Under the pieces are notes generated by a model. It was not told the DNA's origin. It made no database searches and saw nothing but the letters and a program-made list of their open reading frames with translations. A DNA stretch of 64,000 nucleotides, taken from positions 37,030-101,029 of the forward strand of contig NZ_CBFIBE010000003.1 in the NCBI RefSeq assembly GCF_965660805.1. The letters run 5' to 3'. The stretch comes from Nonlabens sp. (GTDB lineage: Bacteria; Bacteroidota; Bacteroidia; Flavobacteriales; Flavobacteriaceae). Shown one piece after another: positions 18,625-49,405 of the stretch (the first letter of the stretch is position 1; every line of letters starts with the position of its first letter). Position numbers and translations under genes: made by a program.

Positions 18625-18673
18625 TTATACCAATTTGTGCTTATTAAGACTTTATAAATTCAATTTGGTATTA
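18625..18673. mobile_element. Inverted-repeat-bounded mini-element, copy A (49 bp), putative MITE or IS-end remnant
   Basis: TTATACCAATTTG...CAATTTGGTATTA, 11/13 inverted match; 18641-18673 is identical to 49373-49405. Confidence 0.6.
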
Positions 18674-18712
18674 TTCCTTTTGGTATGAGTTATGATGAAA
18701 CGCTTTTAAGTT

Positions 18713-19216
18713 TTACAGCTTTAAGCCAAATCGTGCCAGCATCTTTTTTTCAAACCACCAGAAAAATTTAAACTGTCCAAAGATCCATCCATTTACCACT
18801 AGCAATACTTGATAAATAGGGAAGATGATGAGTAAGCGTAGTGGCCAGAAAGTCCATGCCGACATAGAATCCTGATCAATTCCTAAAAATTCCAGTAGAG
18901 GTGAAGAGAGTCGTGCAGCCGCAGATCCTGTAATGGCAAACACTATAAATATGGCTATCATTTCCCAGCGCTGTTTAATATTCCATTTAGTGATCAAGCG
19001 TGGAAAAACCCACATACAAAACCTATAGAAAATGTAAGCTAGGAATACTGTCACTCCATAAATAAAGAGATATTCATAAGTTACATCTTCAAAATGAGAA
19101 GGCATTACTCGTGAAGCTATAAAATAACCACAAGCAAGTAAGCTTAATACACCTAATACAATGAATATAAGTTGCCAATTACTAGAAATGTCCCAGTTTT
19201 TTTTGATTTTTTGCAT
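18713..19216 (-). CDS. Membrane protein, DUF6787-like C-terminal half
   Basis: FIVFAITGS, YQVLL..GW.FGQFKFFW.FEKKM. ATG 19216 is preferred over the track start at 19231. Confidence 0.75.
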   Translation of the reverse strand: MQKIKKNWDISSNWQLIFIVLGVLSLLACGYFIASRVMPSHFEDVTYEYLFIYGVTVFLAYIFYRFCMWVFPRLITKWNIKQRWEMIAIFIVFAITGSAAARLSSPLLEFLGIDQDSMSAWTFWPLRLLIIFPIYQVLLVVNGWIFGQFKFFWWFEKKMLARFGLKL

Positions 19217-19230
19217 GGTGCAAAAATACA

Positions 19231-19641
19231 CTACCGCAGCCGTTGATTATATCGTTTTTCAAAGAAAAGAAAGTAATTATAGAGCAAGTAATTTACTTCA
19301 TAGCCATAATCTACGTCATTTTCATAATCTATGCGCCATTGATACAAACTAGGATCGTAACTTAAGGCATTATTTACACGCAAGTTGTATTCATTAACGT
19401 AGAGTTTGTTGCGCATCTCTAGAGTGCTTTGTGCATAATAACCTCTGGGCGGTTGAGTAACGAGCCAGGCATTAAAACCAGGTTCTATGACGATGAGTTC
19501 ATACTCTAAACTATCATTAGCAATACGCAAAGTGTCAGATTTAGTCTGTATAGCAAGTGAACCATTTCTAGTACTAGGCCTGTAACTATTACAACTCACG
19601 ATAAGGGCAAGAAGGGCTATAAAATAAAAGGTTGTTTTCAT
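19231..19641 (-). CDS. Lipoprotein, DUF6146-like
   Basis: Lipobox LLALIVSC, EYELIVIEPGF, DYGYEVNYLLYNYF. Start 19641 gives a canonical lipoprotein signal (track start 19725). Confidence 0.78.
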   Translation of the reverse strand: MKTTFYFIALLALIVSCNSYRPSTRNGSLAIQTKSDTLRIANDSLEYELIVIEPGFNAWLVTQPPRGYYAQSTLEMRNKLYVNEYNLRVNNALSYDPSLYQWRIDYENDVDYGYEVNYLLYNYFLFFEKRYNQRLR

Positions 19642-19733
19642 GGGGTAAATATAACGCCACAAAAACAACCTTACACGCCATAACTCGTATATACTATATA
19701 TGAACGAGTAAAAGGCGGTTTTCATTGAGTTAT

Positions 19734-20372
19734 TTACTTTCCAAAAAGCCCACCTAGTAATCCTCCTAGACCACCTTTTTTCTTGTCGCCACCTAGTACC
19801 ATTCCTGCTACATTATCAACGATGCTACCATCACCGTCTGCATCGAGGATTTGTTCGATAAATGATTGATCTTTTGCTCCAGACTGTCCTAGGACAGATC
19901 CTAAAAGATCTCCTATTCCGTTTTGGTCTACATTTTCAGCCTGTTTTTGTTTTCCTAGCATACCCATAAGAATAGGAGCAGCCATTTTAATAATTTCACT
20001 CACGTTACTAGCATCCATACCACTAGATTGAGAAAGAGCACTTTCTACTTGCGGTTGTTTAGCTCCTAGTACATGACCTAAAATACCAGCACCATCATTA
20101 ACTAAATCATCCGGGCTACCTGCGCCATCGCCAAAAAGCCCGCCTAACATATCCAGTACTCCACCGCCGTGACGCTGATCGCTTAAGGCACTGTTTAAAG
20201 CACTCGCACCTTCTGGTGTAGCTGCATTACGTTGCATAGCTCCTAGTATTAAAGGCATAGCCTGTGATAATACATTTGCTGTTTTATCTGCTGGTTGACC
20301 TGTCTTTTGAGCAGCACCATTGATAAGTGTCTGTCCTAAATCTGATTGTAAAAGGTTTAATATAGAATCCAT
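19734..20372 (-). CDS. DUF937 family protein
   Basis: Gly/Leu-rich helical repeats, LGHVLG, DADGDGS, GLGGLLGGLFG tail. Confidence 0.82.
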   Translation of the reverse strand: MDSILNLLQSDLGQTLINGAAQKTGQPADKTANVLSQAMPLILGAMQRNAATPEGASALNSALSDQRHGGGVLDMLGGLFGDGAGSPDDLVNDGAGILGHVLGAKQPQVESALSQSSGMDASNVSEIIKMAAPILMGMLGKQKQAENVDQNGIGDLLGSVLGQSGAKDQSFIEQILDADGDGSIVDNVAGMVLGGDKKKGGLGGLLGGLFGK

Positions 20373-20454
20373 TGTGATACATTATAATGTTTAATGAATT
20401 GTAAATTAAAGTATCCTAAGGTTTAATTATCCTTTTAGATTTCTCTTTTAAGTT

Positions 20455-20470
20455 CGCTTTCGCGAAAGCG
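20455..20470. repeat. 16-bp palindrome copy 6, perfect, intergenic
   Basis: CGCTTTCGCGAAAGCG upstream of the DUF937 gene. Confidence 0.97.
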
Positions 20471-20609
20471 TAATTTTAAACGATAAAATACCATAATCCA
20501 GCATGATCATGCTTCATAAAGAAGTGCCCTTTATTCTTAAAAATGGCTACGTATTTTTTATTTACAGTTTTTGAAGTCCAGTGAGCTAACTAGACTTGTA
20601 GCTCAGGGC

Positions 20610-20630
20610 TATAAACGCAATTTGGTATAA
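20610..20630 (-). mobile_element. Mini-element single end, copy D
   Basis: Minus strand TTATACCAAATTGCGTTTATA is 18/21 identical to 34957-34977. Confidence 0.5.
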
Positions 20631-20667
20631 AGTTATTTTAGCTTGTTTTTTAGTAATTTATGTAAAG

Positions 20668-20692
20668 AAAAAGCGCCCTGAAAAGGGCGCTT
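20668..20692 (-). terminator. Intrinsic terminator of the sigma factor gene
   Basis: AAGCGCCCT-gaaa-AGGGCGCTT with a U-run on the minus strand. Confidence 0.75.
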
Positions 20693-20715
20693 GAATAAAA
20701 AAATGTAGGGACTGA

Positions 20716-21579
20716 TTACCCTAAATATGACTTAAGGATTTTACTTCTTGAGTTTTGACGCAATCTTTTGATTCCTTTTTCTTTAATCTGGCGCACGCGC
20801 TCACGAGTTAAATCAAAGGTTTCACCGATCTCTTCTAAGCTCATAGGTTGTTGATTCCCTATACCGAAGTAAAGAGAAATAACGTCTGCCTCTTTTTGTG
20901 ATAAAGTCTCAAGTGCGCGAGTGATCTCAAGTGTAAGTGACTCATGCAATAATTCTCTATCTGGATTAGGAGACTCACCACTACGCACTACGTCATAGAG
21001 GTTAGAGGTTTCTCCTTCTTTAAGAGGTGCGTCCATCGATACGTGACGACCTGCGTTTTTAAGAGACTGCTTAACGTCGCTTACCGTCATGTCTAGCTCT
21101 TTTGCTAGCTCTTCTGGTGATGGTGGGCGCTCGTGTAATTGCTCAAGGTGTGAAAATGCCTTATTAATCTTGTTTATAGATCCGATTTTGTTCAAAGGTA
21201 AACGCACGATACGGGACTGCTCTGCTAGTGCTTGAAGAATCGACTGGCGTATCCACCATACTGCGTATGAGATGAATTTAAATCCACGAGTTTCATCAAA
21301 TCTTTTGGCAGCCTTTACAAGACCTGCATTACCTTCATTAATAAGATCTGGAAGTTTAAGCCCTTGATTCTGATACTGTTTTGCAACAGAAACCACAAAA
21401 CGTAAGTTTGCAGTAGTCAGTTTCTCTAGAGCTCTCTGATCACCCTTTTTAATACGCTGTGCCAGTTCCACTTCTTCCTCTGCCGTGATTAGATCAATTT
21501 TAGAGATGTCCTGTAGGTACTTATCCAGCGATTTAGACTCACGGTTGGTAACCTGCTTGGTGATTTTGAGTTGTCTCAT
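20716..21579 (-). CDS. RNA polymerase sigma-70 factor, RpoD/SigA family, Bacteroidota type without region 1.1; may be a second paralogue
   Basis: [47 protein letters not shown]. Confidence 0.93.
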
Positions 21580-21763
21580 TTAATGTATAAAGATTAAAAA
21601 GTTTATAGTACCTGACAGCTTTTGTCAGGCTTTGTTATATTAGCAAAAATCATACCAAAACAGTTGTTTATGACACTTATTCAGACCAGTAATAGTGCGA
21701 GATGTGCTACTATTTATGAGTCGTAAGATGATGCTTTTTGTTACAGATATGGTTTTGGTTTTA

Positions 21764-21779
21764 CGCTTTCGCGAAAGCG
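21764..21779. repeat. 16-bp palindrome copy 7, perfect, intergenic
   Basis: CGCTTTCGCGAAAGCG upstream of the sigma factor gene. Confidence 0.97.
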
Positions 21780-21886
21780 TATTCTTTACAACCATAACGT
21801 TAATAGGCCTTTATTTGAATCCTTATCTTTAATTTTATTTTTAAACTAATGAACAAAACCTGAATAAGAGGACCATTTAAGTCTTG

Positions 21887-22300
21887 TTAAAAAATTAAGA
21901 AAAAATCTAGAATTACTATTGCGGTCCATAATATGACACGTAACCAGTTGTATTGTGTCAGTTTGTGAAGATTTTGTTCAGTTGGGTTTTTATCTATGGC
22001 GGCATGCATGGGAATAAATATAAATACTGTTGATATCCATGTAAGTGCTACCAAAATAGCATAAACAAGATTAGGCGCAAACATTAAGTGATAATACAAC
22101 CAGAAATAAATTACTAACCCTATTTGTAGAAACATTAACGGTGCTACGATAAATGTAATGTTTCTCGTATAGATTTTGTGCCATCTACTCAACCCATCTT
22201 TTCCAAAGTACTTAAAACCTGGATAAATTAACAATTGTACCATCCATATTAATACCATAAGACCAAAGTCTATAGCGAGTCTAAATATTTCTATTTTCAT
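21887..22300 (-). CDS. Hypothetical 4-TM membrane protein
   Basis: ORF track; QLLIYP, PMH and NWLRVILW motifs; hydrophobic. Confidence 0.78.
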   Translation of the reverse strand: MKIEIFRLAIDFGLMVLIWMVQLLIYPGFKYFGKDGLSRWHKIYTRNITFIVAPLMFLQIGLVIYFWLYYHLMFAPNLVYAILVALTWISTVFIFIPMHAAIDKNPTEQNLHKLTQYNWLRVILWTAIVILDFFLIF

Positions 22301-22336
22301 ATAATTGATTTTCTAGGTTGGAGTAAGGTCTATCTG

Positions 22337-22717
22337 TTATGCTTTTCTAATTTTCCATGCCCACCAAATTAATAATGGATGAATAACTATTAATCGTATC
22401 CAAGCTATCCATTCAGGGATACAAAAATCTCCAGCACAACTGCCCATTTGTATAAAATAGATATGTGAAATGGTAAAGGCTAGTAGCATAGCTATGGTTA
22501 TATAACTAGTTAACTGTTGCGAGAGTTTAAAACACGCCATTACCGCTACTAATAGTTCTACAAATCCTGCTGTGTAATTGATTAATGATTTATAACACAT
22601 CCAGTCAGGAATCACTTCCAGATAAACATCTGGCTGGATGAAGTGCATGATGCCGGCAACGGTATAAAAAACTACAAAAGAGTAGCGTAGCAGGTTGCGT
22701 TTCATGTGAGTTTCCAA
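22337..22717 (-). CDS. DoxX-like membrane protein
   Basis: FY.VAGIMHF..P..Y, C-terminal W.RL...PLLI.WAW. Confidence 0.72.
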   Translation of the reverse strand: METHMKRNLLRYSFVVFYTVAGIMHFIQPDVYLEVIPDWMCYKSLINYTAGFVELLVAVMACFKLSQQLTSYITIAMLLAFTISHIYFIQMGSCAGDFCIPEWIAWIRLIVIHPLLIWWAWKIRKA

Positions 22718-23085
22718 TTATGATCTGTATGAACCTTCTTGAGAATTAAAAAAAACGGTATCCACCAAATGAAGTCGTTTGTGATTAAGGTATAGATGAA
22801 TTCCAATGGAACAACGTCTTGTAAATAATTAAAAATAAATCCTAATGGTCCAAAAATCTTACCCAAAAAGCCGACTGCGACGATAGGCCAGTGGCGCATG
22901 GGATCATTACTTGCCCACCAATAACCGAGACCATAAACGCCTATAACCATTCCCATGCCTTGCCATACCATAGGGTGATTTAAGGGTTCCATACCTACTA
23001 ATTCAAAGAAATGATTAGGGAATAACACCACCCAAGCGCCCCAAATCAAATTATATATTGCAGCAAGTTGAAGTGTAAGTTTCAT
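22702..23085 (-). CDS. Hypothetical 4-TM membrane protein
   Basis: AAIYNLIWGAWVV, WQGMGMVIGVYG, NDFIWWIPF. Confidence 0.75.
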   Translation of the reverse strand: MKLTLQLAAIYNLIWGAWVVLFPNHFFELVGMEPLNHPMVWQGMGMVIGVYGLGYWWASNDPMRHWPIVAVGFLGKIFGPLGFIFNYLQDVVPLEFIYTLITNDFIWWIPFFLILKKVHTDHNWKLT

Positions 23086-23135
23086 AAAATGTTTTAAGCT
23101 TAGGTCTAGGTGAGCTTGTTTAAATTACAACCATA

Positions 23136-24260
23136 CTAAGATTTTATATCTTTTCTGTAAGTACGTCTTCTTTTGTGAAGTATAGGGTCATAGTTTTTCC
23201 AAGAGGCCTGAACGGCTAAGTTATCTTCAAGTTCTGGATTAGTTTCACACAGTGTAACGCCGTAATTCATAAAGTTTTGCGTGACGTTTCTAAACATCAT
23301 TGCGGTAACTCCTTTTCCCTGATATTCTGGATCTATTCCTATAAGGTAGAAAGCTGCTCTATCGTTTTTCTTTTTGGCTTTTAATAAATGCATAAAACCA
23401 AGCGGCCATAATTTACCTTTTGCTTTTTGTAAGGCACGAGAAAATGAAGGCATGGTTATGGCAAAACCTATTAGTTTTTCATGCTCATCAACCACGAGTT
23501 CTAAAAAATCTGGATTTATAAAAGGAAGATATTTTTCTTTGTAAAGATCAATCTGGTATTGCTGGATAGGAACAAAGGTTACTAAGTTGCTATATGTCTT
23601 ATTTAGAAGATCAAACATATCATCTACGTAAGGCAGTATTTCTTTGGTAGACTTGAACTTGAGAGTTTTAAGCTTGTATCTTTTTCCTATTATATCTGCA
23701 AATTTGTTGATCTTTTCAGGAATAGGATTAGGTGGTTCAAATTTGAATTCTACCCATTCTGCGGCTTTTTCATAGCCTAATTGCTCTAAATGTTGTTTAT
23801 AATATGGAGCGTTATACCATGTAATCATGGTACTTAATTCTTCAAAACCTTTTATGAGTAAGCCTGCCTTATCCATGTTTGAAAACCCTACAGGACCTTC
23901 CACATATTCTAGGTTCTTGTCTTTTCCTATTTGGTGAACTTCTTTAAGAAGTGCTTTAGTGACCTCTATGTCATCAATCATGTCTAGCCATCCGAAACGC
24001 ATTTTAGGTTTCTTTTGTTCATTAACCTCGATATAATTAATAATAGCAGCAATACGTCCTACTATTTTTTTATCTCGATAAGCTAGAAACATCCAGCAGT
24101 CTGCATTTTTAAATACTTGATTCTTCTCAGGATCAAAATTTGCCATCTCATCTTTTATGATGGGTGGCACGTAGTATTTATTATCTTTATATAGTTCTTG
24201 CTGGAAGGCTACAAACTTCTTCACATCAGCCTTAGAACTTATTTGCTTGATTTCAATCAT
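23136..24260 (-). CDS. YghO-like protein with a C-terminal GNAT-like fold
   Basis: YVPP...E, GRIAAIIN, N.PYY..H.E.LGY, ELEDN, K.RRTY.K. Confidence 0.7.
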   Translation of the reverse strand: MIEIKQISSKADVKKFVAFQQELYKDNKYYVPPIIKDEMANFDPEKNQVFKNADCWMFLAYRDKKIVGRIAAIINYIEVNEQKKPKMRFGWLDMIDDIEVTKALLKEVHQIGKDKNLEYVEGPVGFSNMDKAGLLIKGFEELSTMITWYNAPYYKQHLEQLGYEKAAEWVEFKFEPPNPIPEKINKFADIIGKRYKLKTLKFKSTKEILPYVDDMFDLLNKTYSNLVTFVPIQQYQIDLYKEKYLPFINPDFLELVVDEHEKLIGFAITMPSFSRALQKAKGKLWPLGFMHLLKAKKKNDRAAFYLIGIDPEYQGKGVTAMMFRNVTQNFMNYGVTLCETNPELEDNLAVQASWKNYDPILHKRRRTYRKDIKS

Positions 24261-24269
24261 AGGAGATTC

Positions 24270-25232
24270 TTAGAAATCTATTTTTTTCTTTTTCTTGTTT
24301 TTCTTTCCTTTATCATCGCCAGTACCTTTTAGGTTTTTTTTCTGACTGATGGCTTCATCATCTTTATGAAAATCAAAACGGTAAGACATCCCTACATTTG
24401 CTTGAAAAACACTAGGTGTATCTTTAAAGTTTATAGTAGCACTAGCATCAACCTGCCAGTCTTTACTAATTAAGTATGCAATACCACCACGACCTAAATC
24501 ATCACTATAAAAGTCTGATTTGAATCCTTGATACTCGCCAAAAACAGCCCATTTTCTATTAATACTATGTGTCATGGTAAGAATCCATTCATAAGAAGGG
24601 TAATCTGTAGAAATACGGTCTACAATAAAGTTAGTCACAAAAACCCATTGTCCCCAGTTGTTTTGCGTGATTAATTCAAATCGAGGAGAAAATGAAGGGT
24701 CATTAGGAGGCGTGAGAGAATTAGTCTCAGATAAATCTATGTTTGCTCCAGCATAAATGGAAACCGCAGGAACTAAATCTTTCCAGTTCAATCTTCTATT
24801 TGCTTTCCAGCTTAACAGATTTACCTTTTTCTCACCCCAAAATTTCAAAGGATCAAATACTAAATATTTAGCACCGATCGTACTACGTGAAAAATTTGAA
24901 AATTTACTGTCCACATTACCGAAACCACGATTATCTGATTGTTTCACACTAGCAAATGTCCCTATGTATGAGAATTCTAAACGTTCCATAAATGCTCCAT
25001 AGCGCAGTTGCATACTTAATCCTGTATAGTCGCGTTCATAGCGCTGTAAATGATGCTCTTCTGTGCGATAAAATAAATTTCCCTCAACTTGAGCAACACC
25101 TTTCCCTACAGCAAAGGCACCTTGAGATAGCCCAGGATTGTTAGTATTAACGGTTTCTGTATACTGAGCAGCGGTAGACATGCTGATGAAACACACTATA
25201 GCAAATAATATTTTTTGAGTCCAAGCCTTCAT
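24270..25232 (-). CDS. Outer-membrane beta-barrel transporter, Phenol_MetA-like
   Basis: Signal peptide, NTNNPG.S.GAFAVGKG..QVE, amphipathic strands, C-terminal G.SYRFD. Confidence 0.7.
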   Translation of the reverse strand: MKAWTQKILFAIVCFISMSTAAQYTETVNTNNPGLSQGAFAVGKGVAQVEGNLFYRTEEHHLQRYERDYTGLSMQLRYGAFMERLEFSYIGTFASVKQSDNRGFGNVDSKFSNFSRSTIGAKYLVFDPLKFWGEKKVNLLSWKANRRLNWKDLVPAVSIYAGANIDLSETNSLTPPNDPSFSPRFELITQNNWGQWVFVTNFIVDRISTDYPSYEWILTMTHSINRKWAVFGEYQGFKSDFYSDDLGRGGIAYLISKDWQVDASATINFKDTPSVFQANVGMSYRFDFHKDDEAISQKKNLKGTGDDKGKKNKKKKKIDF

Positions 25233-25321
25233 AAAATGATATTCTATAAGGCTTCAAATTTAAGATATATTAAAGAGTAATGATTAAATGAGTTTTTAAT
25301 TTTACCTAAAATTATAATCTA

Positions 25322-25588
25322 TTGAAATTTTTACAAGCTTTACTTATAGTTCTCGTGGTTTATGTAACCTTACGTTTAATATTTAAGTATTATGGAAAGA
25401 GTATTTTGGCATGGTTAGGAAAAAAGGCGATGCAGCGCATGGCTCGTAGTTTTGAAAAACGCAGCGGTATGAATATGTCAGATATTAAAAACTCTCAAAC
25501 TAATAGAACTTCTAACCATAAAAAAGTTAACAAACCTACCGAAAAGAAAGTAGTAGGTGAGTACGTGGACTTTGAGGAAATTGATTAA
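25322..25588 (+). CDS. DUF4834 family small membrane protein
   Basis: N-terminal TM, C-terminal GEYVDFEEID; TTG start. Confidence 0.78.
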   Translation: MKFLQALLIVLVVYVTLRLIFKYYGKSILAWLGKKAMQRMARSFEKRSGMNMSDIKNSQTNRTSNHKKVNKPTEKKVVGEYVDFEEID

Positions 25589-25618
25589 TTTTCAACCTTA
25601 ATAGATTGCCTTTAATTC

Positions 25619-28087
25619 ATGACTTTTAATTTTAAGAAAATCCTTCCGCATCTCGCAGTTATTGCAGTATTTATTATTGCTGCATTAGCTTACTTTAATC
25701 CAGTATTAAGCGGTAAAAAACTATACCAAAATGATATTGTTCAGTATAAAGGTAATGCGAGACAGTTAATAGAACACCGCGCTGCCACAGGAGAAGAACT
25801 CTACTGGACAGATTCTGTTTTTGGAGGTATGCCCACATATCAACTCGGTGCGCGCTATCCTTATGATTTTATAGATGGACTTGATAGAGTGCTGAGATTC
25901 CTGCCACGTCCTGCAGACTATCTTTTCCTTTATTTCTTTTCCTTTTACATGCTCATGCTGGTGATGCGTGTCAACTGGAAAATAGGTTTACTAGGAGCAC
26001 TGGCTTTTGGGTTTTCTACCTATTTGATTATCATTCTAGGAGTAGGGCACAATGCCAAAGCTCATGCCATAGCTTACTTTCCTCTTGTACTTAGTGGCAT
26101 ATTATTAGTGTTTCAAAAACGATATTTACTAGGTTTTATAGTTACAGCGGTTGCCATGGCACTAGAGCTGCAGGCTAACCATCCTCAAATGACTTATTAT
26201 TTATTGCTGGCTGTGATTATTTTAGGCGTCGCTTATCTGGTAGATGCTGCTCGTAAAAAAGTTTTACCGCACTACTTTAAATCTATAGGTATTATGACCG
26301 CTGCAGTATTACTGGCACTAGGAACTAATGCCGGTAATTTACTAGCAACTAGTGAGTACTCTCAAGAAAGTACCCGTGGTAAATCTTCTCTAACTATTAA
26401 CGCTCAAGGCGAAAAAATAGTTCCTCAAACAGGTCTCGACTATGACTACATCACGCAGTATTCTTATGGATTAAGTGAAAGTTTAAATTTGTTAGTTCCT
26501 AGATTTGCCGGTGGTGGAAGTGCTGCCAGACCTGACGAAGATTCAAATGCTGTACAATTCCTTACGGATCAAGGTTTGCCTAAAAGAGAAGTTTTAGGAT
26601 TTATTAATGAAAGTGTACCGCTTTATTGGGGTGATCAAATTATTGTAGAAGCACCACCATACCTAGGAATAGGAGTTGTGTTTCTGGCGATTCTTGCATT
26701 ATTTTTAATAAAAGGAAGGCTGCGCTGGTGGACTAGTGCTGTTATTATTTTAGCTTTATTACTGTCCTACGGTAAAAATGCAGACTGGCTCACAAGTTTC
26801 TTTATAGATGTGGTACCGTTGTACAATAAATTCCGTGCAGTGACATCTATTCAGGTACTAATAGAGCTATGTGTTCCTATTCTTGCTGTTATAGGGTTAT
26901 GGCAGTTTTTTAACGAAAAGAATACACAGGAAACAAAAGCCAAAGCACTCAAATATGCCGGTATTACTTTGGGTGGTTTGCTAGTTATACTGGTAGCATT
27001 TGGTGGTCAATTATTTGATTTTGCCAGTCCTATGGATCGGTATTACTTAGAAAGTGAACAATTAGGAGTAGGTTTTGTGGACGCTTTAAGAGATGATCGT
27101 TTTGAAGTCATGCGAGCAGATGTTTTTAGAGCACTGTTAATAGTTGGGATTATTTCGGCAGCATTATTTTTATTACTCAAAAAGAAGGTTTCAGAGAACC
27201 TGGTTTTACTAGTCGCTGGAGTGGTTATCTTATTTGACTTAGTAAGTTTCAACCTGAACTATGTAAACAGCGATGATTATGTAAAAGCCAGTGAGTATGA
27301 TAACGCACACACTAAGACTCAAGCAGATGAAATCGCTATGCAAGATGCTAAGAATGGCGATCATTACAGAGTTTATGATAAATTAGTGAATCCATTTAAT
27401 TCAGGTCGTGCGCCTTACTTCCATAAATCTATAGGTGGTTATCATGGTGCAAAGCCTAGACGTATTCAAGAGATATCAGAATTTTATCTTTATGATGAAA
27501 ACGGAATAGCTCCTGTGAATAGAGAAAATATAGAAATCTTGAGCATGTTTAATGTGAGATACATTATAGATGTTGAAGAAACCGGTTATGTAGCTCAAAA
27601 AAATCCTATGACCTTAGGAAATGGCTGGTTTGTAAACGAACTTAAGGTGGTAGAAAATGATAATGAAGAGATAATGAGTCTAGCTGAACTTAACGGAACA
27701 CAACGCGCCATTATCCAGAAGAATCAAAAAGATCTTCTCCAGCTCAAAACTACCCATGCAGATTCCACTTCAAGCATTCAACTAGTAGATTATGACACTC
27801 AAAGACTGGTTTATAAAAGTAATAACATTCAAGAAGGTCTAGCAGTTTTCTCTGAAATGTATTATCCGCATGGATGGAAAGCTACTGTTGATGGGCAGGA
27901 AACTCCTATAGCTAGAGTAAACTATGCGTTAAGAGGAATTAAGGTTCCAGCAGGTTCTCATGAAATAGTCATGAGTTTTGAACCTCAAGTAGTAAAAACA
28001 GGTAGTTCTATAATGCTAGGAAGTAATATCCTTTTATTTTTAATCATTATAGGTGGAGCGTTTTACAGGTTTAAGAATAAGTCTTAA
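25619..28087 (+). CDS. YfhO family polytopic membrane protein, GT-C-like
   Basis: Many TM helices, WT.S.FGGMPTY, YNKFRA, SIGGYHGAK, FSEMYYP.GWKA, NYALRG. Confidence 0.85.
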   Translation: MTFNFKKILPHLAVIAVFIIAALAYFNPVLSGKKLYQNDIVQYKGNARQLIEHRAATGEELYWTDSVFGGMPTYQLGARYPYDFIDGLDRVLRFLPRPADYLFLYFFSFYMLMLVMRVNWKIGLLGALAFGFSTYLIIILGVGHNAKAHAIAYFPLVLSGILLVFQKRYLLGFIVTAVAMALELQANHPQMTYYLLLAVIILGVAYLVDAARKKVLPHYFKSIGIMTAAVLLALGTNAGNLLATSEYSQESTRGKSSLTINAQGEKIVPQTGLDYDYITQYSYGLSESLNLLVPRFAGGGSAARPDEDSNAVQFLTDQGLPKREVLGFINESVPLYWGDQIIVEAPPYLGIGVVFLAILALFLIKGRLRWWTSAVIILALLLSYGKNADWLTSFFIDVVPLYNKFRAVTSIQVLIELCVPILAVIGLWQFFNEKNTQETKAKALKYAGITLGGLLVILVAFGGQLFDFASPMDRYYLESEQLGVGFVDALRDDRFEVMRADVFRALLIVGIISAALFLLLKKKVSENLVLLVAGVVILFDLVSFNLNYVNSDDYVKASEYDNAHTKTQADEIAMQDAKNGDHYRVYDKLVNPFNSGRAPYFHKSIGGYHGAKPRRIQEISEFYLYDENGIAPVNRENIEILSMFNVRYIIDVEETGYVAQKNPMTLGNGWFVNELKVVENDNEEIMSLAELNGTQRAIIQKNQKDLLQLKTTHADSTSSIQLVDYDTQRLVYKSNNIQEGLAVFSEMYYPHGWKATVDGQETPIARVNYALRGIKVPAGSHEIVMSFEPQVVKTGSSIMLGSNILLFLIIIGGAFYRFKNKS

Positions 28088-34795: not shown

Positions 34796-34819
34796 AATAG
34801 CTCATATTAATTTTTATGT

Positions 34820-34850
34820 AAAGCTCCTTCATTTTGTTGGAGCTTTTTTT
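34820..34850 (+). terminator. Intrinsic terminator
   Basis: AAAGCTCC...GGAGCTTT followed by a T-run. Confidence 0.7.
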
Positions 34851-34956
34851 TATTGCTAATCTGCCAGTATAATGAGTTGAATCAAATAATAATTTGAGGC
34901 AATAACTCCATGTTTTGTACGAGCTATAGATGTGAAATTTATTTCATTTTTACTTG

Positions 34957-35094
34957 TTATACCCATTTGGGTTTATAATGTCGTTAAAATAATTTGAATT
35001 ATTCTTTGCATAGCTGTAGCCAAGGAAATAATTTTAAGTGAAAGGTAAGTAGAAAAGAAACTATTTATTAAGACTTAAAGTCAATTTGGTATTA
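34957..35094. mobile_element. Inverted-repeat-bounded mini-element, copy B (138 bp), putative MITE
   Basis: Left end TTATACCCATTTG; right end TTATTAAGACTT-aaag-TCAATTTGGTATTA shared with copies A and C. Confidence 0.55.
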
Positions 35095-35121
35095 CTGCAC
35101 GAAACTCTTTTTTCATTGTTC

Positions 35122-35137
35122 AGCTTTCGCGAAATCG
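35122..35137. repeat. 16-bp palindrome copy 10, two mismatches, intergenic
   Basis: AGCTTTCGCGAAATCG. Confidence 0.8.
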
Positions 35138-35288
35138 TGATATAACTAACTATTTAATAATACGGATCTCCTAGTAACGCTAGGATAAACTGTGTAAGAT
35201 TAATGGTGATTTGTACTGATTGCGATACCGGCATTCCAGTAAACATGATTGATTTTTACAACCATATTATTCATAACAAAGGGCTATG

Positions 35289-41492: not shown

Positions 41493-41516
41493 CAATACTT
41501 TACTTAAATACAGTAA

Positions 41517-41942: not shown

Positions 41943-42896
41943 TTATCCTTTGTCAAATCTGGCGTTGTCATGGAATTTAAAACCGTTCAAAAGACTTTTT
42001 GCCTCCATACGTTTTTTATTGGGTAACTGTAATTCTATAATTTGTATAAAACCGTTAAGGCCGGCTACTTTTATAGTATCATCTTCTATAATAATGGAAC
42101 CAGGTTGCATAGTGTGTTTTTTTATCTCTATGGCAGTTTTATAGATTTTAATAGTTTCAGGTTGCTCTTGAATCAGTACCGCTTTTGCCACGGGATAAGG
42201 ATATAAGCCTCTTACTAGTGCGTCTATATGTTCTACTTTATTGTTCCACTTAATGGTCGTATTAGAACTATTTAGTTTAGGAGCTTCTTTTAATGTAGAG
42301 CTATGGGGTTGTTTTTTTGTACTTATTATCCCTGCGGCAATGTCATTTACCGTTTTTAATGATAACTCGCTACCTAGTAACATGAGCTTACCATATAAAC
42401 TACCCACGTTTTCATCCTTGTCTATAGGACAATTCAGTTGGTCTATAATTGCGCCTGTGTCAATTTTATCATCTATAAAAAAAGTAGTTACTCCTGTTTG
42501 TGTTTCTCTATTAATAATAGCCCAATTAATAGGAGCTGCACCTCTATATTCTGGCAGTAAGCTTGCATGTAAATTAAACGTTCCTAGTTCAGGCATGTTC
42601 CATACTACTTTAGGTAACATTCTGAATGCCACGATTACCTGTAAGTCTGCTCCATAGCTTTTTAATTCTTCAAGAAACTCTGGAGCTTTTAAATTAGGTG
42701 GTTGTAAAACAGGAATATTTTGTGCTAGCGCATATTTCTTTACGTGACTTTCATTAATTTTTCTACCACGTCCAGCTGGTTTATCAACTGCTGTAACTAC
42801 AGCTACTACCTCATGTTGAGAATGATGTAATTTTTCTAATACACCTGTTGCAAACTCAGGTGTGCCAAAGAATATGATTTTTAATATTCTATTCAT
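41943..42896 (-). CDS. fmt: Methionyl-tRNA formyltransferase
   Basis: FFGTPEFA, DKPAGRG, NLHASLLPEYRGAAPINWA. Confidence 0.97.
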   Translation of the reverse strand: MNRILKIIFFGTPEFATGVLEKLHHSQHEVVAVVTAVDKPAGRGRKINESHVKKYALAQNIPVLQPPNLKAPEFLEELKSYGADLQVIVAFRMLPKVVWNMPELGTFNLHASLLPEYRGAAPINWAIINRETQTGVTTFFIDDKIDTGAIIDQLNCPIDKDENVGSLYGKLMLLGSELSLKTVNDIAAGIISTKKQPHSSTLKEAPKLNSSNTTIKWNNKVEHIDALVRGLYPYPVAKAVLIQEQPETIKIYKTAIEIKKHTMQPGSIIIEDDTIKVAGLNGFIQIIELQLPNKKRMEAKSLLNGFKFHDNARFDKG

Positions 42897-44775
42897 TCCA
42901 TGTATATTTTTGATTAGGCATTAATCTCACTAGTCCACGGTCTAGTAAATCTTTAAGAGTATTAATGACTTGTGATTGTTCCTTTTCAGGATGTAAAGAT
43001 GCAATTTCCTTAACGCTTAAGTCTGAATCCTGTAGTGCATTTTTTATTATTAAACTTAAGTTTCCTCTCTTTGTTGTTTTATTGCAATGTGTACATTTCC
43101 CGCAAGGATTAGATTCCTCTCCAAAGTATTTTAAAATCAGCACGTTAATACACTCTTCTTTTTGAGAGATAAGATCGCATATCAACTTGAGCTTCTCTTT
43201 TTTTACTTGATTTTGTTGTTTTAATGTTTTAGCAAAACGGTTGATTGTTCGATCATCATCACGCGGTTCGAGAAAAGTAATTTGAGTATCAGCATTAACG
43301 ATCTGTGCGTCTATAAGTTCCTTTTCTTCAAGGAATTTAAGAGTCTCCAGTACTTCGTTTTCTGTGGTATTACTGCGCAAAGCGATGATAGAACTATTAA
43401 TCTCTAAGTTTTGGTATGTACTACTGCCATAGGTGCGCAGTATAGATTGTATGATGGAGTTCATAGCAGGACGATTGTGTATGAACTCGAGAATTTTTTT
43501 TCCGCTTTCGCGAAAGCGTATACTTGATTTCCTGTGGTAATTTTGCGATAAGCTTATGATACTAAATCGGTCTAGCGTGAGTAGCACATTATAACAAAGA
43601 ACACCATTAATAGAGTAGGTGCTGGCAAAACTGGCAAAACTCAACTGATGGCTTGTGTTTTCTCCTTCACCCATTGCTATGCGTAAATAATTATTCAATT
43701 TACGGTACACATATTTAACTTGCTCAGTAGTGGCAAGAGATTTAATAAACTGATTTTGAGCATGTATAATATCGTTTATGTTATAGAAAAACTGAGCAAT
43801 ACTTTCTTTACCATCTCTACCAGCACGGCCTGTTTCTTGATAATAACTCTCTATACTGTCGGGCAGTTGTAAATGAGTAACTGTGCGCACATCAGGTTTA
43901 TCTATTCCCATACCAAATGCGTTTGTAGCTACCATCACCTGAGTATCATTTTCCATCCATGATTGAGCGGCTTTTACTTTAGTCTTGTGAGGTAAGCCTC
44001 CATGGTAAAAGTTAGAGGAAATACCATTTACCGTTAGTAACCTTGAATAGTTAACAGCATTCTTACGACTTCTTACATACGTGATTGAACTGCCTGTATG
44101 TTTTTTATAGAACTCTGTATAACTGCTGTTTTTATCTTCTGTATCTGTGATGTAATAGCTTATATTAGGTCTCAAATAACTGTTTTTAAAAACTTGATGA
44201 TTTACCAGCTCCAGATTTTCTATCATATCTTTTTGAACATCAAGTGTTGCAGTAGCAGTAACTGCAATTATAGGTGTAGCTTTATGAATTTTGCGTAGTA
44301 CTTTAATATCTCTGTATGCCGGTCTGAAATCATGTCCCCACTGGCTCACACAGTGTGCCTCATCTACAGCTATTAAGGACACCTTCATTCTAGCGATACG
44401 TTCTTGAACAAGACTTTGTTGTAGTCGTTCTGGACTTAGGTATAAGAATTGATACTGACCATAAATACAATTATCCAGTATATCATCGAGTTCTTGATAA
44501 GTGATACCACCAGTGATGCCTGTTGCTTTTATTCCTTTAGATTTTAAAGTGTTTACTTGATCTTTTATAAGCGCAACTAGTGGAGAAACAACAACGCAAA
44601 TTCCTTCTCGTACTAAACCTGGAATTTGATAACACAAGGATTTACCACCACCTGTAGGTAATAGAGCAAGAACATCATTACCTTCTATAACAGCATCTAT
44701 AATGGCTTCTTGCTGCGGTCTAAACGCGTTATAGCCAAAGGTGTTTTGTAATATATGTTTTGCTCCTGGATTCAA
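42889..44775 (-). CDS. recQ: RecQ family ATP-dependent DNA helicase
   Basis: PTGGGKSLCYQ, DEAHCVSQWGHDFRP, ATNAFGMGIDK, YYQETGRAGRDG, C-terminal Zn-binding cysteines. Confidence 0.92.
   Translation of the reverse strand: MNPGAKHILQNTFGYNAFRPQQEAIIDAVIEGNDVLALLPTGGGKSLCYQIPGLVREGICVVVSPLVALIKDQVNTLKSKGIKATGITGGITYQELDDILDNCIYGQYQFLYLSPERLQQSLVQERIARMKVSLIAVDEAHCVSQWGHDFRPAYRDIKVLRKIHKATPIIAVTATATLDVQKDMIENLELVNHQVFKNSYLRPNISYYITDTEDKNSSYTEFYKKHTGSSITYVRSRKNAVNYSRLLTVNGISSNFYHGGLPHKTKVKAAQSWMENDTQVMVATNAFGMGIDKPDVRTVTHLQLPDSIESYYQETGRAGRDGKESIAQFFYNINDIIHAQNQFIKSLATTEQVKYVYRKLNNYLRIAMGEGENTSHQLSFASFASTYSINGVLCYNVLLTLDRFSIISLSQNYHRKSSIRFRESGKKILEFIHNRPAMNSIIQSILRTYGSSTYQNLEINSSIIALRSNTTENEVLETLKFLEEKELIDAQIVNADTQITFLEPRDDDRTINRFAKTLKQQNQVKKEKLKLICDLISQKEECINVLILKYFGEESNPCGKCTHCNKTTKRGNLSLIIKNALQDSDLSVKEIASLHPEKEQSQVINTLKDLLDRGLVRLMPNQKYTWNE
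43503..43518. repeat. 16-bp palindrome copy 12, perfect, in recQ, read as RFRES
   Basis: ...RKSSI-RFRES-GKKIL... Confidence 0.97.
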
Positions 44776-45305
44776 TCTTTTATTTGATTATTTAAAAAAG
44801 TAAATCGCTCTTCTATGGCGCCTACTGGTATTTCAATAGGGTTGTAATTAAATTTACGATAGTAGTTAATAAGAATATCACTTATTTGAACAGCCTGCTC
44901 AAAAGTTTCATACCGTTCATTATCAGATTCATATATTTCCTTCCATGGTGGTAAATAAAATACCATATCATATTCATGTTCCTGGCAAGCAGTGATATAT
45001 TCAGCAGGGATAGGGTCACCCGTAAATAAGTGATATGCCGGTACATCTGGAATACCACGATCATAAAAATTCAAGCCGTTAATGGCATTTTTAAACTGTG
45101 CTATTCTTCCAGCAAGTAAATTATTGCTAAACGCCATAGGGTCTGTAAGGAATAGTTGATCGATTCCTTTTTCTTGAGCCTCTTTAATAACCTCTCTTGA
45201 GATTTCATGATGAACTAGTAATCCTTGTGATTCTATATATTTGATAAGGGTAGTTTTACCTGATCCAGGTCCACCTATTAATAAAATTCTTTTTATACCT
45301 TTCAT
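44772..45305 (-). CDS. AAA_28 (NadR/Ttd14-like) P-loop NTPase/kinase
   Basis: GGPGSGKTT, YDRGIPD, PW.EIY..D.ER.E. Confidence 0.82.
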   Translation of the reverse strand: MKGIKRILLIGGPGSGKTTLIKYIESQGLLVHHEISREVIKEAQEKGIDQLFLTDPMAFSNNLLAGRIAQFKNAINGLNFYDRGIPDVPAYHLFTGDPIPAEYITACQEHEYDMVFYLPPWKEIYESDNERYETFEQAVQISDILINYYRKFNYNPIEIPVGAIEERFTFLNNQIKD

Positions 45306-45357
45306 AACAGTTACAAAATAACTAAAATCAAATGTAGTTCAAGCTTAATTCATGACT

Positions 45358-45365
45358 TATATTTG
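45358..45365 (+). promoter_or_regulatory. -7 promoter box of the DUF493 gene
   Basis: TATATTTG 14 nt upstream of the ATG. Confidence 0.6.
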
Positions 45366-45379
45366 TATTCTTTTATTTT

Positions 45380-45667
45380 ATGGATCCAAAAAAATCTCAG
45401 GACTTTTATAAAAAGCTTAAATCACAGCTGGAGGAAACTAGTACGTGGCCTAGTAAGTATTTATATAAATTTATAGTACCATCACAGCCACAAAAAATAG
45501 CACAAATAGAGACTATATTTAATGGTTTAGGTGCTGTTATTGTTACTAAGGAATCAAGTAAAGGTACATATACTAGTGTTTCTATAACGGTAATTATGAA
45601 ATCACCAGATGCCGTTATTGAAAAGTATAAAGAGGTAGGTACTATAGAAGGAGTGATCTCGCTATAA
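45380..45667 (+). CDS. DUF493 (YbeD-like) protein
   Basis: WPSKYLYKFIVP, SSKGTYTSVS. Confidence 0.85.
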   Translation: MDPKKSQDFYKKLKSQLEETSTWPSKYLYKFIVPSQPQKIAQIETIFNGLGAVIVTKESSKGTYTSVSITVIMKSPDAVIEKYKEVGTIEGVISL

Positions 45668-45904
45668 ACGTTACCTAGATGGGCTTACTAAAATTAATGA
45701 TTCTATATGAAAAAAGATGTCAGTGAGTTAGTATAAATACTGCTCTTTTAACGAGATGTCACATTAAAGCGTCGATAAACTCTCGATTATTATAAGGAAA
45801 AAATAGGTGCAAAGAAATAACACTTATACAAGTAAAATTTAAAATAGATTGTTTGCTGTAAATTGTTTAATTTGCAGCTCTTCACAAGTAATTAAAAAAT
45901 CATA

Positions 45905-46573
45905 TTGGTACCATCATTAGAATATAACACAGAGCGTAATCATCTCAACATTCCTGAATATGGAAGGCATATTCAAAAATTAGTAGAGCACTGTAAAGAA
46001 CTCAAAACTAAAGAAGAACGTAATCGCATGGCCACTGCTATAGTAGGAGTTATGGGAAACCTTAATCCACACTTACGTGATGTGGCAGATTTCCAGCACA
46101 AGCTATGGGATCAGTTGTTTATCATTGCAGATTTTGACCTAGATGTAGATTCTCCTTATCCTATGCCAGATAAGGAACTACTTGCAGCAGCGCCAGAACG
46201 CATGCCTTACCCACAAAAACGACCTAAATACCGTTTTTATGGAAATAATATTCAAAATATGATTAATGTGGCATTGAGCTGGGAAAAAGGCGAGAAACGA
46301 GAAGCTCTTACTTTTATCATAGCAAATCACATGAAAAAATCCTTCCTCAATTGGAACAAAGATTCAGTAGATGATAATGTGATTTTTAAGCACCTGTTTG
46401 AGATGAGTGGTGGAGAGATTAATCTCGCTGCAAAAGATGAGGACTTACTAGATTCAAAATCATTAATCCATAGAACAATAGGTCGTCGAGATCATAGTAC
46501 AAACCCTAGACGTAATAATAATAATAAGCGCCATTATAAATCTAATAATCGCAACCATAAACGCTCTAGGTAG
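45905..46573 (+). CDS. DUF4290 family protein
   Basis: LEYNTER..L.IPEYGR.IQ, KLWD.LFI, ANHMKK; TTG start. Confidence 0.85.
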   Translation: MVPSLEYNTERNHLNIPEYGRHIQKLVEHCKELKTKEERNRMATAIVGVMGNLNPHLRDVADFQHKLWDQLFIIADFDLDVDSPYPMPDKELLAAAPERMPYPQKRPKYRFYGNNIQNMINVALSWEKGEKREALTFIIANHMKKSFLNWNKDSVDDNVIFKHLFEMSGGEINLAAKDEDLLDSKSLIHRTIGRRDHSTNPRRNNNNKRHYKSNNRNHKRSR

Positions 46574-46589
46574 TGATTACTTTACTAAG

Positions 46590-46620
46590 AAAAAAAGCAG
46601 TCTTTCAGGCTGCTTTTTTT
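46590..46620 (+). terminator. Intrinsic terminator
   Basis: AAAAAAAGCAGTCT-ttc-AGGCTGCTTTTTTT. Confidence 0.8.
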
Positions 46621-46722
46621 AGTTAACAGTTTTTGTTAATTAATTATGAATAGATATTTAGATAATATTATAATGGCTGCGTTCTTAACTCTTACTTTTA
46701 GAGTTGTAATTATTATTTAGAA

Positions 46723-48033
46723 ATGGGAACATTTATTATAGAAGGTGGACATCAATTAAAAGGTGAAATTCAACCACAAGGAGCTAAGAATGAGGCATTA
46801 CAAATATTGTGTGCCGTATTATTAACAGAGGAACCTGTTACCATTAATAACGTTCCAGACATTATAGACGTTAATAAACTTATAGCTTTATTAAACAATC
46901 TAGGTGTAAAGGTCACAAAAAATGGTCCAGAGTCCTATACTTTTCAGGCAGACCAAGTAGATCTTGATTTTCTTCAATCCGAAGATTATAAAGTACAAGG
47001 TCGTGGTTTAAGAGGATCTATTATGTTAGTAGGACCATTATTAGCCCGGTTTGGTAAAGGTTATATCCCACGTCCTGGTGGAGATAAAATAGGTCGTAGA
47101 AGATTAGATACACACTTTGAAGGATTTATTAAACTAGGAGCAAATTTTAGATATAACAAAGAAGAGTATTTCTATGGTGTTGAAGCAGATGAACTCCATG
47201 GAACTTACATGTTACTGGATGAGGCATCTGTTACTGGAACGGCAAACATAGTTATGGCTGCGGTCATGGCTACTGGAGAAACCACCATTTATAATGCCGC
47301 CTGTGAACCTTATTTACAGCAATTATGTAAAATGCTCGTGCGCATGGGAGCTGACATTAAAGGAATAGGTTCTAATATGTTAACCATTAATGGAGTAAAA
47401 AAATTAGGTGGAACAACTCATACCATCTTACCAGATATGATTGAGATAGGTAGCTGGATAGGTCTTGCTGCCATGACTAAAAGTGAGGTGACTATTAAAA
47501 ATGTAGCTTATGATGAGCTAGGAGTTATACCAGATACTTTTAGAAAATTAGGAATTTCCATAGAACGTAAAGGAGATGATATTTTCATTCCTGCCCATAA
47601 AGATGGGTACGAGATTCAAAACTATATAGACGGTTCCATACTCACCATTGCCGATGCGCCATGGCCTGGATTCACTCCTGATTTATTAAGTATTATTCTA
47701 GTAGTAGCTACTCAAGCTAGAGGTAGTGTGCTTATTCATCAAAAAATGTTTGAAAGCCGCCTTTTCTTTGTAGATAAACTTATCGATATGGGAGCAAAAA
47801 TTATACTTTGTGATCCTCATAGAGCAAGTGTCATAGGTCACGATTTCCAGTCTATTTTAAAAGCTACTACCATGACTTCTCCAGACATACGTGCTGGGAT
47901 CTCATTATTAATCGCTGCTTTAAGTGCCAAAGGAACTAGCACAATACACAATATAGAACAGATCGATCGTGGTTACCAAAATATAGACACACGATTAAAA
48001 AAAATAGGGGCAAAGATCGAGCGACTGGCTTAA
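46723..48033 (+). CDS. murA: UDP-N-acetylglucosamine 1-carboxyvinyltransferase, Asp-type active site
   Basis: GAKNE, PGGDKIGRRRLDTH (Cys replaced by Asp), ASVTGTAN, SPDIRAG, IDRGY. Confidence 0.97.
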   Translation: MGTFIIEGGHQLKGEIQPQGAKNEALQILCAVLLTEEPVTINNVPDIIDVNKLIALLNNLGVKVTKNGPESYTFQADQVDLDFLQSEDYKVQGRGLRGSIMLVGPLLARFGKGYIPRPGGDKIGRRRLDTHFEGFIKLGANFRYNKEEYFYGVEADELHGTYMLLDEASVTGTANIVMAAVMATGETTIYNAACEPYLQQLCKMLVRMGADIKGIGSNMLTINGVKKLGGTTHTILPDMIEIGSWIGLAAMTKSEVTIKNVAYDELGVIPDTFRKLGISIERKGDDIFIPAHKDGYEIQNYIDGSILTIADAPWPGFTPDLLSIILVVATQARGSVLIHQKMFESRLFFVDKLIDMGAKIILCDPHRASVIGHDFQSILKATTMTSPDIRAGISLLIAALSAKGTSTIHNIEQIDRGYQNIDTRLKKIGAKIERLA

Positions 48034-48054
48034 ATTTGTTGGTCTGTTAAAACT

Positions 48055-48097
48055 GGTTTAATTACGCTTTCGCATAAGCATAATTAAACCTTTTTTT
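48055..48097 (+). terminator. murA terminator hairpin containing a degenerate palindrome copy
   Basis: GGTTTAATTACGCTT-tcgcat-AAGCATAATTAAACC followed by T7. Confidence 0.7.
48065..48080. repeat. 16-bp palindrome copy 13, three mismatches, intergenic
   Basis: CGCTTTCGCATAAGCA. Confidence 0.6.
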
Positions 48098-48163
48098 ATG
48101 AATAAAGTCTTAATTAAGTCTAAAAACCATTGATTTAGGCAAGACTTTTGCTAGTTTTAAACT

Positions 48164-48775
48164 ATGAACAAGATTTTATTAACTCTTACTTTATCATTAT
48201 TATATGGTATTGCTACTGCTCAGGATATCCCTAGAAGCAGTAATCGTACTTTAGAACCAGTGTCATCTGGTAATAATATAAAAGGTTCTGTATTATTCCC
48301 TAGAACTAACGAGACTAAAAAGTATGTAAGACCTAGTGAAAAACCTACCATAGATCTCACTCAAAAAACAGATTTACTTGATCCAGGAATACGTTTTCAA
48401 GGGCAAAAGTTTAAAAGTGACACTCCTGCAATCGATTTTGTAAATGACACCTACCTAGGCGAGTACAGGACAGGAAAGGATATTTTAAAAATGACTTTAT
48501 GGGATCCTAGATTAGAAGATGGAGATCGTGTGCGTATATGGCTTAATGATGAGATACTAATTACAGACATGACCCTTTTAAATGCTGCGCAAGGATTTCC
48601 ACTTGCTCTGCAACAAGGTTTTAATAAAATAGAGATTGAGGCTTTAAATCAGGGATACTCTGCACCTAATACTTCTGGAATAGTTATAAGAGATGATGAA
48701 GGAGCCGTTATGGAACAAAAAATATGTATGATTAATGCAGGCGTGAAGTCACTCCTTATTGTCATTAAGGAGTAG
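48164..48775 (+). CDS. Secreted hypothetical protein
   Basis: Signal peptide ending ATA-Q; C-terminal DGDRV.I.LN and GFN.I...ALN.G...PNT. Confidence 0.75.
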   Translation: MNKILLTLTLSLLYGIATAQDIPRSSNRTLEPVSSGNNIKGSVLFPRTNETKKYVRPSEKPTIDLTQKTDLLDPGIRFQGQKFKSDTPAIDFVNDTYLGEYRTGKDILKMTLWDPRLEDGDRVRIWLNDEILITDMTLLNAAQGFPLALQQGFNKIEIEALNQGYSAPNTSGIVIRDDEGAVMEQKICMINAGVKSLLIVIKE

Positions 48776-49354
48776 CGCTCTAATGTCTTGATCCATGATC
48801 TCAATTACCGTTTTATTTTGCATAGTCGCTATAGAGTATGGACCTATTCTGATACGAGCCAGTCGCAAAGTAGGAAAACCTACAGCGCTGGTCATTTTGC
48901 GTACTTGTCTAAACTTACCTTCGTTTAAAGTAACGCTTACCCAAGAAGTCGGGCCGTGACGGTCATCTCTTATCCTTTGAGTAGTTTCTGGCAAGTCGGG
49001 TTGATGCTCTAGCAACTTCACTTTACAAGGCTTAGTCTGGTAATAAGAGCCATTAATACTTATTCTTATACCATCTTGTAGTTTATGAACCACTTGACTG
49101 GTCATGATTCCATCCACTAGTGCCGCATATTCTTTATCTACTTTACCAGATTTGTTAATGTGGTGACTCAACGTACCGTCTGTTGTAATTAATAATAGAC
49201 CTTCTGATAGTTCATCTAATCTACCTACTGCCATTGCATTTTCTGGAAAATCATAAAGCTCACCTAGAAATCTTTTGTTTTTTTGGTGTCTATCATTAGT
49301 CATAAACTGACTTAACATGCGGTAAGGTTTATAAATAAGAAAATGTCTATGCAT
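48749..49354 (-). CDS. rRNA pseudouridine synthase, RsuA/RluE family
   Basis: YKPY..LSQF, GRLD..SEGLLL.T, EGKFRQVRKMT.AVG.PTLRL.R. Confidence 0.92.
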   Translation of the reverse strand: MHRHFLIYKPYRMLSQFMTNDRHQKNKRFLGELYDFPENAMAVGRLDELSEGLLLITTDGTLSHHINKSGKVDKEYAALVDGIMTSQVVHKLQDGIRISINGSYYQTKPCKVKLLEHQPDLPETTQRIRDDRHGPTSWVSVTLNEGKFRQVRKMTSAVGFPTLRLARIRIGPYSIATMQNKTVIEIMDQDIRALLLNDNKE

Positions 49355-49366
49355 GTTGCAAAAATG

Positions 49367-49405
49367 ACCAATTTATTAAGACTTTATAAATTCAATTTGG
49401 TATTA
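49367..49405. mobile_element. Mini-element copy C, left end eroded
   Basis: ACCAATTT-ATTAAGACTTTATAAATTCAATTTGGTATTA equals copy A without GTGCTT. Confidence 0.6.

Follow-up and report, generated by a model that had tools for sequence, protein, structure and literature searches.

A lineage-specific miniature inverted-repeat transposable element family in Nonlabens with TWA target duplications and IS630-type ends

RUP, a repeat of Streptococcus pneumoniae for which the insertion sequence (IS) IS630-Spn1 is the proposed driver, is short (~100-160 bp) and non-coding, can form hairpins, lies between genes in many copies, is mobilised in trans, and has terminal inverted repeats (TIRs) that match those of an IS630-family IS. 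The Correia elements of Neisseria (CREE/NEMIS) are also near-palindromic and mostly intergenic, measure 100-155 bp with inverted ends of ~26 bp, and occur in ~100 or more copies and in internally deleted length classes within a host genome that has no transposase; their target duplication is TA, and no parent IS has been identified for them. We here describe a family of transposable elements of the miniature inverted-repeat kind (MITEs) in Nonlabens sp. that resembles both systems in these respects, with mobilisation in trans as an inferred step. The family came to light in a 64,000-nt stretch of contig C3 (C3:37030-101029, hereafter the window) of a 2.37-Mb draft in 81 contigs with 36% G+C and a completeness of 94.6%. 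It differs from RUP in sequence, with which it has no similarity, in its host, a member of the marine Flavobacteriaceae, and in its target, as it is flanked by duplications of TWA (W being T or A) and not of TA, the duplication made by RUP and by canonical IS630 elements (PMC2170065). The TWA duplication separates it from the Correia elements too, as does the existence of a parent IS family in related genomes.

Members of the Tc1/mariner/IS630 superfamily are described as inserting exclusively into TA and duplicating these 2 bp (PMC2170065), and a TTA or TAA duplication is the signature of PIF/Harbinger elements and of mPing (PMC4561436). The Nonlabens elements obey the same target rule as Tourist/mPing, namely TTA or TAA with a middle T or A that matches on both sides (PMC4561436), but differ from these in their association with an IS630 (DDE_3) transposase, their prokaryotic host and their unrelated ends. 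Bacteroidota do not figure in a review of MITEs in prokaryotes from 2024 (PMC10969869), and a search confined to the literature returned nothing specific on MITEs of Flavobacteriaceae or on IS630 elements with 3-bp duplications. On the evidence set out below we consider it very likely that the repeats are a non-autonomous MITE family tied to an IS630-family transposase, amplified in this lineage and now decaying.

An initial annotation of the window, made from its sequence alone, had listed a pair of identical 33-mers, their left ends, a third copy and a lone end, all of which are present, and had read them as non-autonomous MITEs or internally deleted IS remnants of about 39, 49 and 138 bp. 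With the target-site duplications (TSDs) counted, the window copies do measure 49, 39 and 138 bp, and the MITE reading holds at the scale of the genome. Searches by BLAST and nhmmer with the 138-bp window copy define a family of at least 102 loci, which are spread over most contigs and together make up 10.7 kb (0.45% of the genome). With up to 2 mismatches allowed, the 24-nt end pattern TACCAATTTRYRTTYMTAATGYCG is found 94 times, far more than chance would give, and its reversed control 0 times. The copies form two subfamilies, A and B, each with a 160-bp consensus: A, to which the window copies belong, has 12 near-full copies at 88-98% identity to its consensus, and B has 17 full copies at 93-99%. 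About 12 contig ends stop 39-133 bp (most ~75 bp) inside B copies, so that B is one cause of the breaks in the assembly.

Elements of both subfamilies begin with TACCAATTT and terminate with AAATTGGTA, and their TIRs are imperfect and ~27-30 bp long; the ends of B are TACCAATTTATGTTTCTAATGCCGTAT on the left and TACCAATTTACATTCCTAATGTCGCAT on the right (reverse complement), and those of A are similar. Both subfamilies are near-palindromic across their whole length and each element makes one long hairpin, with folds of -47.5 kcal/mol for B (z -6.8) and -42.7 kcal/mol for A (z -6.5). The copies have diverged (70-99% identity) and truncated ones are present. In common with MITEs, the members of the family are small, multicopy and dispersed, lack coding capacity, and carry both TIRs and TSDs. 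No Rfam family matched the element, a search of plasmid DNA with the B consensus gave no match, and an exact-protein look-up of the neighbouring permease returned no record.

The flanks of the copies bear evidence of insertion. All well-preserved copies lie between TTA and TTA or between TAA and TAA, a 3-bp TWA duplication and not TA. TWA stands on both sides in 31 of 54 end pairs, and W is identical in 30 of these 31 (binomial P ~1.5e-8 for p = 0.5). W belongs to the duplicated target and not to the inverted repeat, since the two sides agree directly and not as complements. We rejected a model with a 2-bp TA duplication, under which some copies would need an additional base at the left end and others, in the same orientation, at the right end. 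One case of TGA/TGA flanks was seen, in L060. At C36:844-1032 a B copy is nested inside an A copy, in the arrangement ACTAT-TAA-[B]-TAA-GACTTT, and intact A copies and the A consensus have a single TAA at this site.

The largest copy in the window gives the matching evidence from orthologous DNA. This 132-bp subfamily A element (34960-35091; window coordinates are on the plus strand unless stated otherwise) was recovered with an nhmmer E of 1.5e-25, is 77% identical to the 160-bp A consensus and lacks ~26 bp relative to it. It lies between TTA duplications at 34957-34959 and 35092-35094, and interrupts the minus-strand remnant of an ogt/MGMT gene (34796-35288) that was recognised by alignment with six congeners. 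In these six the ogt gene is uninterrupted: what is missing from it is precisely the element together with 3 bp, and a single trinucleotide stands at the position of the left TSD. The gene encodes a methylated-DNA-protein-cysteine methyltransferase and is intact in congeners (in L117 it is a 176-aa open reading frame (ORF) with an IVPCHRV motif); the remnant, which lies between a 164-aa gene and a gene for a MacB-like permease, is heavily mutated and its PCHRV active-site codons are destroyed, so the 132-bp copy sits in a pseudogene and not in a true spacer. The earlier statement that all copies are intergenic is right for present-day ORFs, with the qualification that this copy sits within a decayed gene. 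Empty orthologous sites and target duplications, to which the initial annotation had looked for a check of its reading, have thus both been found.

The two smaller window copies are products of internal deletion. Mini-MITE 1 (43 bp, 18628-18670, equal to C3:55657-55699) has TTA/TTA flanks that can be read directly, the duplication at 18625-18627 matching that at 18671-18673, and comparison with the A consensus resolves it into A positions 1-13 fused to ~131-160 across a TTTAT microhomology. Mini-MITE 2 (36 bp, 49367-49402; nhmmer E 2.6e-4 for 49360-49404) joins a left end eroded to ACCAATTT at 49367 to a subfamily A right end; its flanks are AAT/TTA, the right TTA standing at 49403-49405 and the left duplicate having been lost. 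The better preserved left ends read TTATACCAATTTG at 18625 and TTATACCCATTTG at 34957. An identical 33-mer, TTATTAAGACTTTATAAATTCAATTTGGTATTA, is found at 18641-18673 and at 49373-49405, and the same end with a middle shorter by 3 nt recurs at 35065-35094.

Deleted forms of 32-128 bp are numerous in the genome, and several keep matching TSDs. Contigs L015-L047 of the JGI metagenome P_2C_Liq_1 come from the same species (99.6-99.9% identity), and at one shared locus this genome has a 94-bp form where the B copy of the metagenome strain (99.7% identity) is complete, at 162 bp. Two short direct repeats, ATTCAAATTAAG and ATTCAAGTTAAG, border the missing segment. The presence of a full and a deleted form at one locus indicates that the mini-elements arise in place by internal deletion, and some of them may in addition have transposed when already shortened.

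The window contains no transposase, as the initial annotation had said, and in the 94.6%-complete draft we found no intact one, with no match to DDE_3, DDE_Tnp_1, DDE_Tnp_4, DDE_Tnp_1_2 or rve. What the genome does contain is a transposase fossil at C2:22328-22553, in which ~70 C-terminal residues at 46-49% identity, broken by an internal stop, are followed by ...AACTAAATGGGTA-TAA. The genome has no multicopy ORF, and terminus pairs 0.7-4 kb apart show no recurrent length. Other candidates for a full-length element were rejected: a 1015-bp pair of ends in the metagenome contig L046 consists of two separate elements that flank a GatB/YqeY gene and a tRNA; the gaps between contigs, where bridged by metagenome contigs, hold ordinary genes; and a 5.9-kb 'pair' in L014 of Psychroserpens is a chance match within a gene. 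A parent of the IS3 or IS30 type, which would make 3-bp duplications, was rejected as well, with no rve domain in this genome or in G016.

A full-length element came from a scan for the end pattern in 400 other genomes of Flavobacteriaceae, from more than 300 genera. Related ends elsewhere in the family belong mostly to ~160-bp MITEs flanked by TTA, TAA or TGA. In G055 (L069/L076) they enclose a full IS with TTA..TTA flanks, whose protein has the motifs DESRF...VIDNAGFH...PPYAPELNPCEQVW and whose ORFs match PF13358 DDE_3 (E 6.8e-24) and HTH_33. The IS transposase scores 118.7 bits against the NCBIfam model NF033545, 'IS630 family transposase', for which the cut-off is 100; its plasmid homologues carry IS630 family annotation, and it is weakly similar to the catalytic domains of Sleeping Beauty and Mos1. 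By protein search, 15 of 401 family genomes and 3 of 39 in the genus were seen to have this transposase. Full ISs with TWA on both sides are L076, L079, L081, L091 and L093 and three copies in the congener G451; they measure 1119-1124 bp, apart from one copy of 1276 bp that contains a scaffolding gap. Their ends read TACCAWTT or TACGATTT. The three G451 copies, with ends TACGATTT...AAACCGTA and flanks TTA/TTA, TTA/TTA and TAA/TAA, are recent, as they are 99% identical.

These ISs share their ends with the MITEs. Between 20 and 24 of the first 30 nt of the MITE ends match the IS ends of G110 and G055, and the right end of subfamily A, GACTTTATAAATTCAATTTGGTA, parallels the right end of the G055 IS, GACTTTATGAATTTAAATTGGTA, which includes the stop codon of the transposase. 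The full-length, transposase-bearing element for which the initial annotation suggested a search exists in other Flavobacteriaceae, as ISs of ~1.12 kb, and is represented in this genome by the fossil only. The IS630/Tc1-mariner ancestry that it proposed is upheld by the end homology and by the PF13358 and NF033545 matches; its rationale, TA-like termini, was imprecise, the duplication being 3 bp, TWA. Like ISY100 and IS630 elements, the parent ISs are ~1.1 kb long, have short inverted repeats, and encode a pair of helix-turn-helix (HTH) regions at the N terminus and a C-terminal DDE_3 catalytic domain with the motif PPY(A/S)PELNP(C/I)E. In contrast to those elements they are flanked by 3-bp TWA and not by TA (PMC2170065), and several parent copies have two overlapping ORFs. 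The two-ORF arrangement, an HTH part of ~170 aa and a DDE part of ~190 aa, was seen in L091, L079, L093 and L104, and one G451 copy (L106) has a single open frame of 371 aa. The two-ORF copies would need a programmed frameshift.

The abundance of the family is peculiar to this lineage. Against 94 termini here, the end pattern has 0-7 in each of the 400 other family genomes, and a looser pattern gives 69 termini here and no more than 9 per genome among 30 others from the genus. Just 0.7% of the MITE bases fall within ORFs of at least 120 aa in a genome that is 85% coding. Among 86 classifiable loci, 31 lie in convergent gaps, where ~15 are expected from gap length, and 10 in divergent gaps, where ~21 are expected (chi-square ~22.7, 2 degrees of freedom). 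Such a distribution is to be expected if insertions in genes and promoters are purged.

The same enrichment downstream of convergent genes could instead reflect a function for the host, with selection keeping the repeats as palindromes for a regulator, as terminators or RNA-stabilising hairpins, or as small RNA genes. The long stable hairpins would suit such a role, as would the position of mini-MITE 2, 13 bp upstream of the ATG of a minus-strand pseudouridine synthase ORF (48749-49354). We regard this explanation as very improbable. It does not account for the TSDs, the nested insertion or the orthologous empty site within a gene, nor for ends homologous to those of ISs; the burst is confined to this lineage and 38 congeners lack it, the copies are in decay, as their identities of 70-99% and truncated members show, and no Rfam family matches. 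A regulator-binding site, which the initial annotation had named as the alternative, would be expected in few copies, at fixed promoter positions and conserved in relatives. We find ~100 copies that are enriched in convergent gaps, hold no fixed position relative to gene starts and are absent from congeners, so this alternative is not borne out. Individual copies, for example the one upstream of the pseudouridine synthase gene, may nonetheless have been exapted secondarily.

Even less probable, in our estimation, is that the elements are mobile but driven by an IS5-family or PIF/Harbinger-like transposase. A TWA duplication is characteristic of PIF/Harbinger elements and mPing (PMC4561436), but the genome has neither DDE_Tnp_1 (PF01609) nor DDE_Tnp_4 (PF13359), DDE_Tnp_1_2 (PF13586) has no match above cut-off in the genome or the genus, and all full-length elements found with these ends and TWA flanks encode an IS630-family protein. 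That the repeats are REP/BIME-like elements spread by a RAYT (Y1) transposase, or remnants of another repeat class, is hardly credible: they are short, palindromic, intergenic repeats at the 3' ends of genes, as REPs are, but REPs lack TIRs plus target duplications, and here we find 3-bp TSDs, IS630-type ends and a genome without any multicopy ORF.

Four observations weigh against a MITE family tied to an IS630-type transposase. The hallmark of IS630/Tc1-mariner elements, a TA target with a 2-bp TA duplication, is seen neither in the MITEs nor in the full-length ISs. The interior of the MITEs has no detectable homology to the ISs, a point that bears on whether they arose by internal deletion of an IS or by de novo assembly of ends. 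The driver is assigned through the homology of the ends, 67-80% over 30 nt, to ISs that other genomes carry, with no partner in the genome itself. Lastly, ~280 kb compared with the metagenome population contained no presence/absence polymorphism and thus no direct sign of recent movement.

Weighing these together, we still favour a MITE family tied to an IS630-family transposase, and propose the following history. A parent IS630-family DDE transposase would have recognised the ends and mobilised the ~160-bp element in trans by cut-and-paste, inserting it at T-W-A with duplication of all three bases. Amplification to ~100 copies took place specifically in this lineage, and the element survives almost solely outside genes, preferentially between convergent genes. 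The source of transposase has since been lost, or is unassembled, leaving the pseudogenised C-terminal fragment and a right end. With that source gone, the copies are now decaying through point mutations and through internal deletions between short direct repeats, which yield the 36-49 bp mini-elements of the window. In this genome, at 2.37 Mb the smallest of its genus (against about 3 Mb; about 0.8 Mb below the others), the family has probably lost its mobility. The small genome, the MITE burst, the lost transposase and a MITE in a decayed ogt gene fit a genome undergoing reduction.

The duplication of TWA rather than TA is the sole unusual point in what is otherwise ordinary selfish DNA. As a tentative proposal, somewhat short of an even chance, we suggest that the parent ISs, with their TACC...GGTA ends, are a branch of IS630/Tc1-mariner that uses a 3-nt T-W-A stagger in place of the 2-nt TA stagger regarded as universal in the superfamily, and that is possibly undescribed, together with its MITEs. 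If true, they are a natural experiment for learning what governs the stagger and target specificity of enzymes of the Tc1-mariner type, and if confirmed at the bench, the 'TA rule' of the Tc1/mariner/IS630 superfamily would need qualifying. For the genome at hand, one selfish element explains ~100 loci and several contig breaks, which are not to be taken for regulatory sites or RNA genes.

The lone end in the window is a solo right-end remnant at 20608-20630, consisting of GCTATAAACGCAATTTGGTA followed by TAA; a search for its partner left end found none. Read as its reverse complement, 20610-20630 agrees with 34957-34977 in 18 of 21 nt. Within the window only, the 11-mer CAATTTGGTAT occurs 7 times with up to one mismatch, compared to 2.5 expected.

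Several minor observations concern related elements in other genomes. Other Flavobacteriaceae genomes contain another type of MITE, whose ends are TACCAATTAYAAC.TAAAA and whose flanks are again TTA/TAA, in L064 (454-545), L073 (2214-2374) and L074 (2258-2417), which suggests that this IS630 branch served several MITE lineages. On a TARA scaffold, an apparent gene for a LytTR-domain regulator is broken by a related MITE of 160 bp that lies between TAA flanks (L026, 8514-8673); the gene product reads FIESDGNYVTFKTV before the MITE and ...MRIHRSYIIAFKHIE after it. The only related MITE of Psychroserpens sp. AS72 (L014, 1200-1572) lies directly upstream of an ORF whose N-terminal sequence, MEATGYYHYRLAQFF, looks like that of an IS110-family transposase.

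Within the Nonlabens genome, an A copy on C6 (C6:30049-30444) is split by an insert of ~250 bp, part of which (CTTATGAAGC.ATGCTATCAGTAGGTTTTA) recurs beside a B copy at C73:1-150; the shared insert may point to one more family of repeats or to segmental duplication. The P_2C_Liq_1 contigs bridge several contig breaks of the draft, for example C18-C54, C73-C31, C78-C50, C74-C47 and C21-C56. Along one 2.7-kb stretch the metagenome contig L027 is only 94.7% identical to C54, which suggests recombination or strain mixing.

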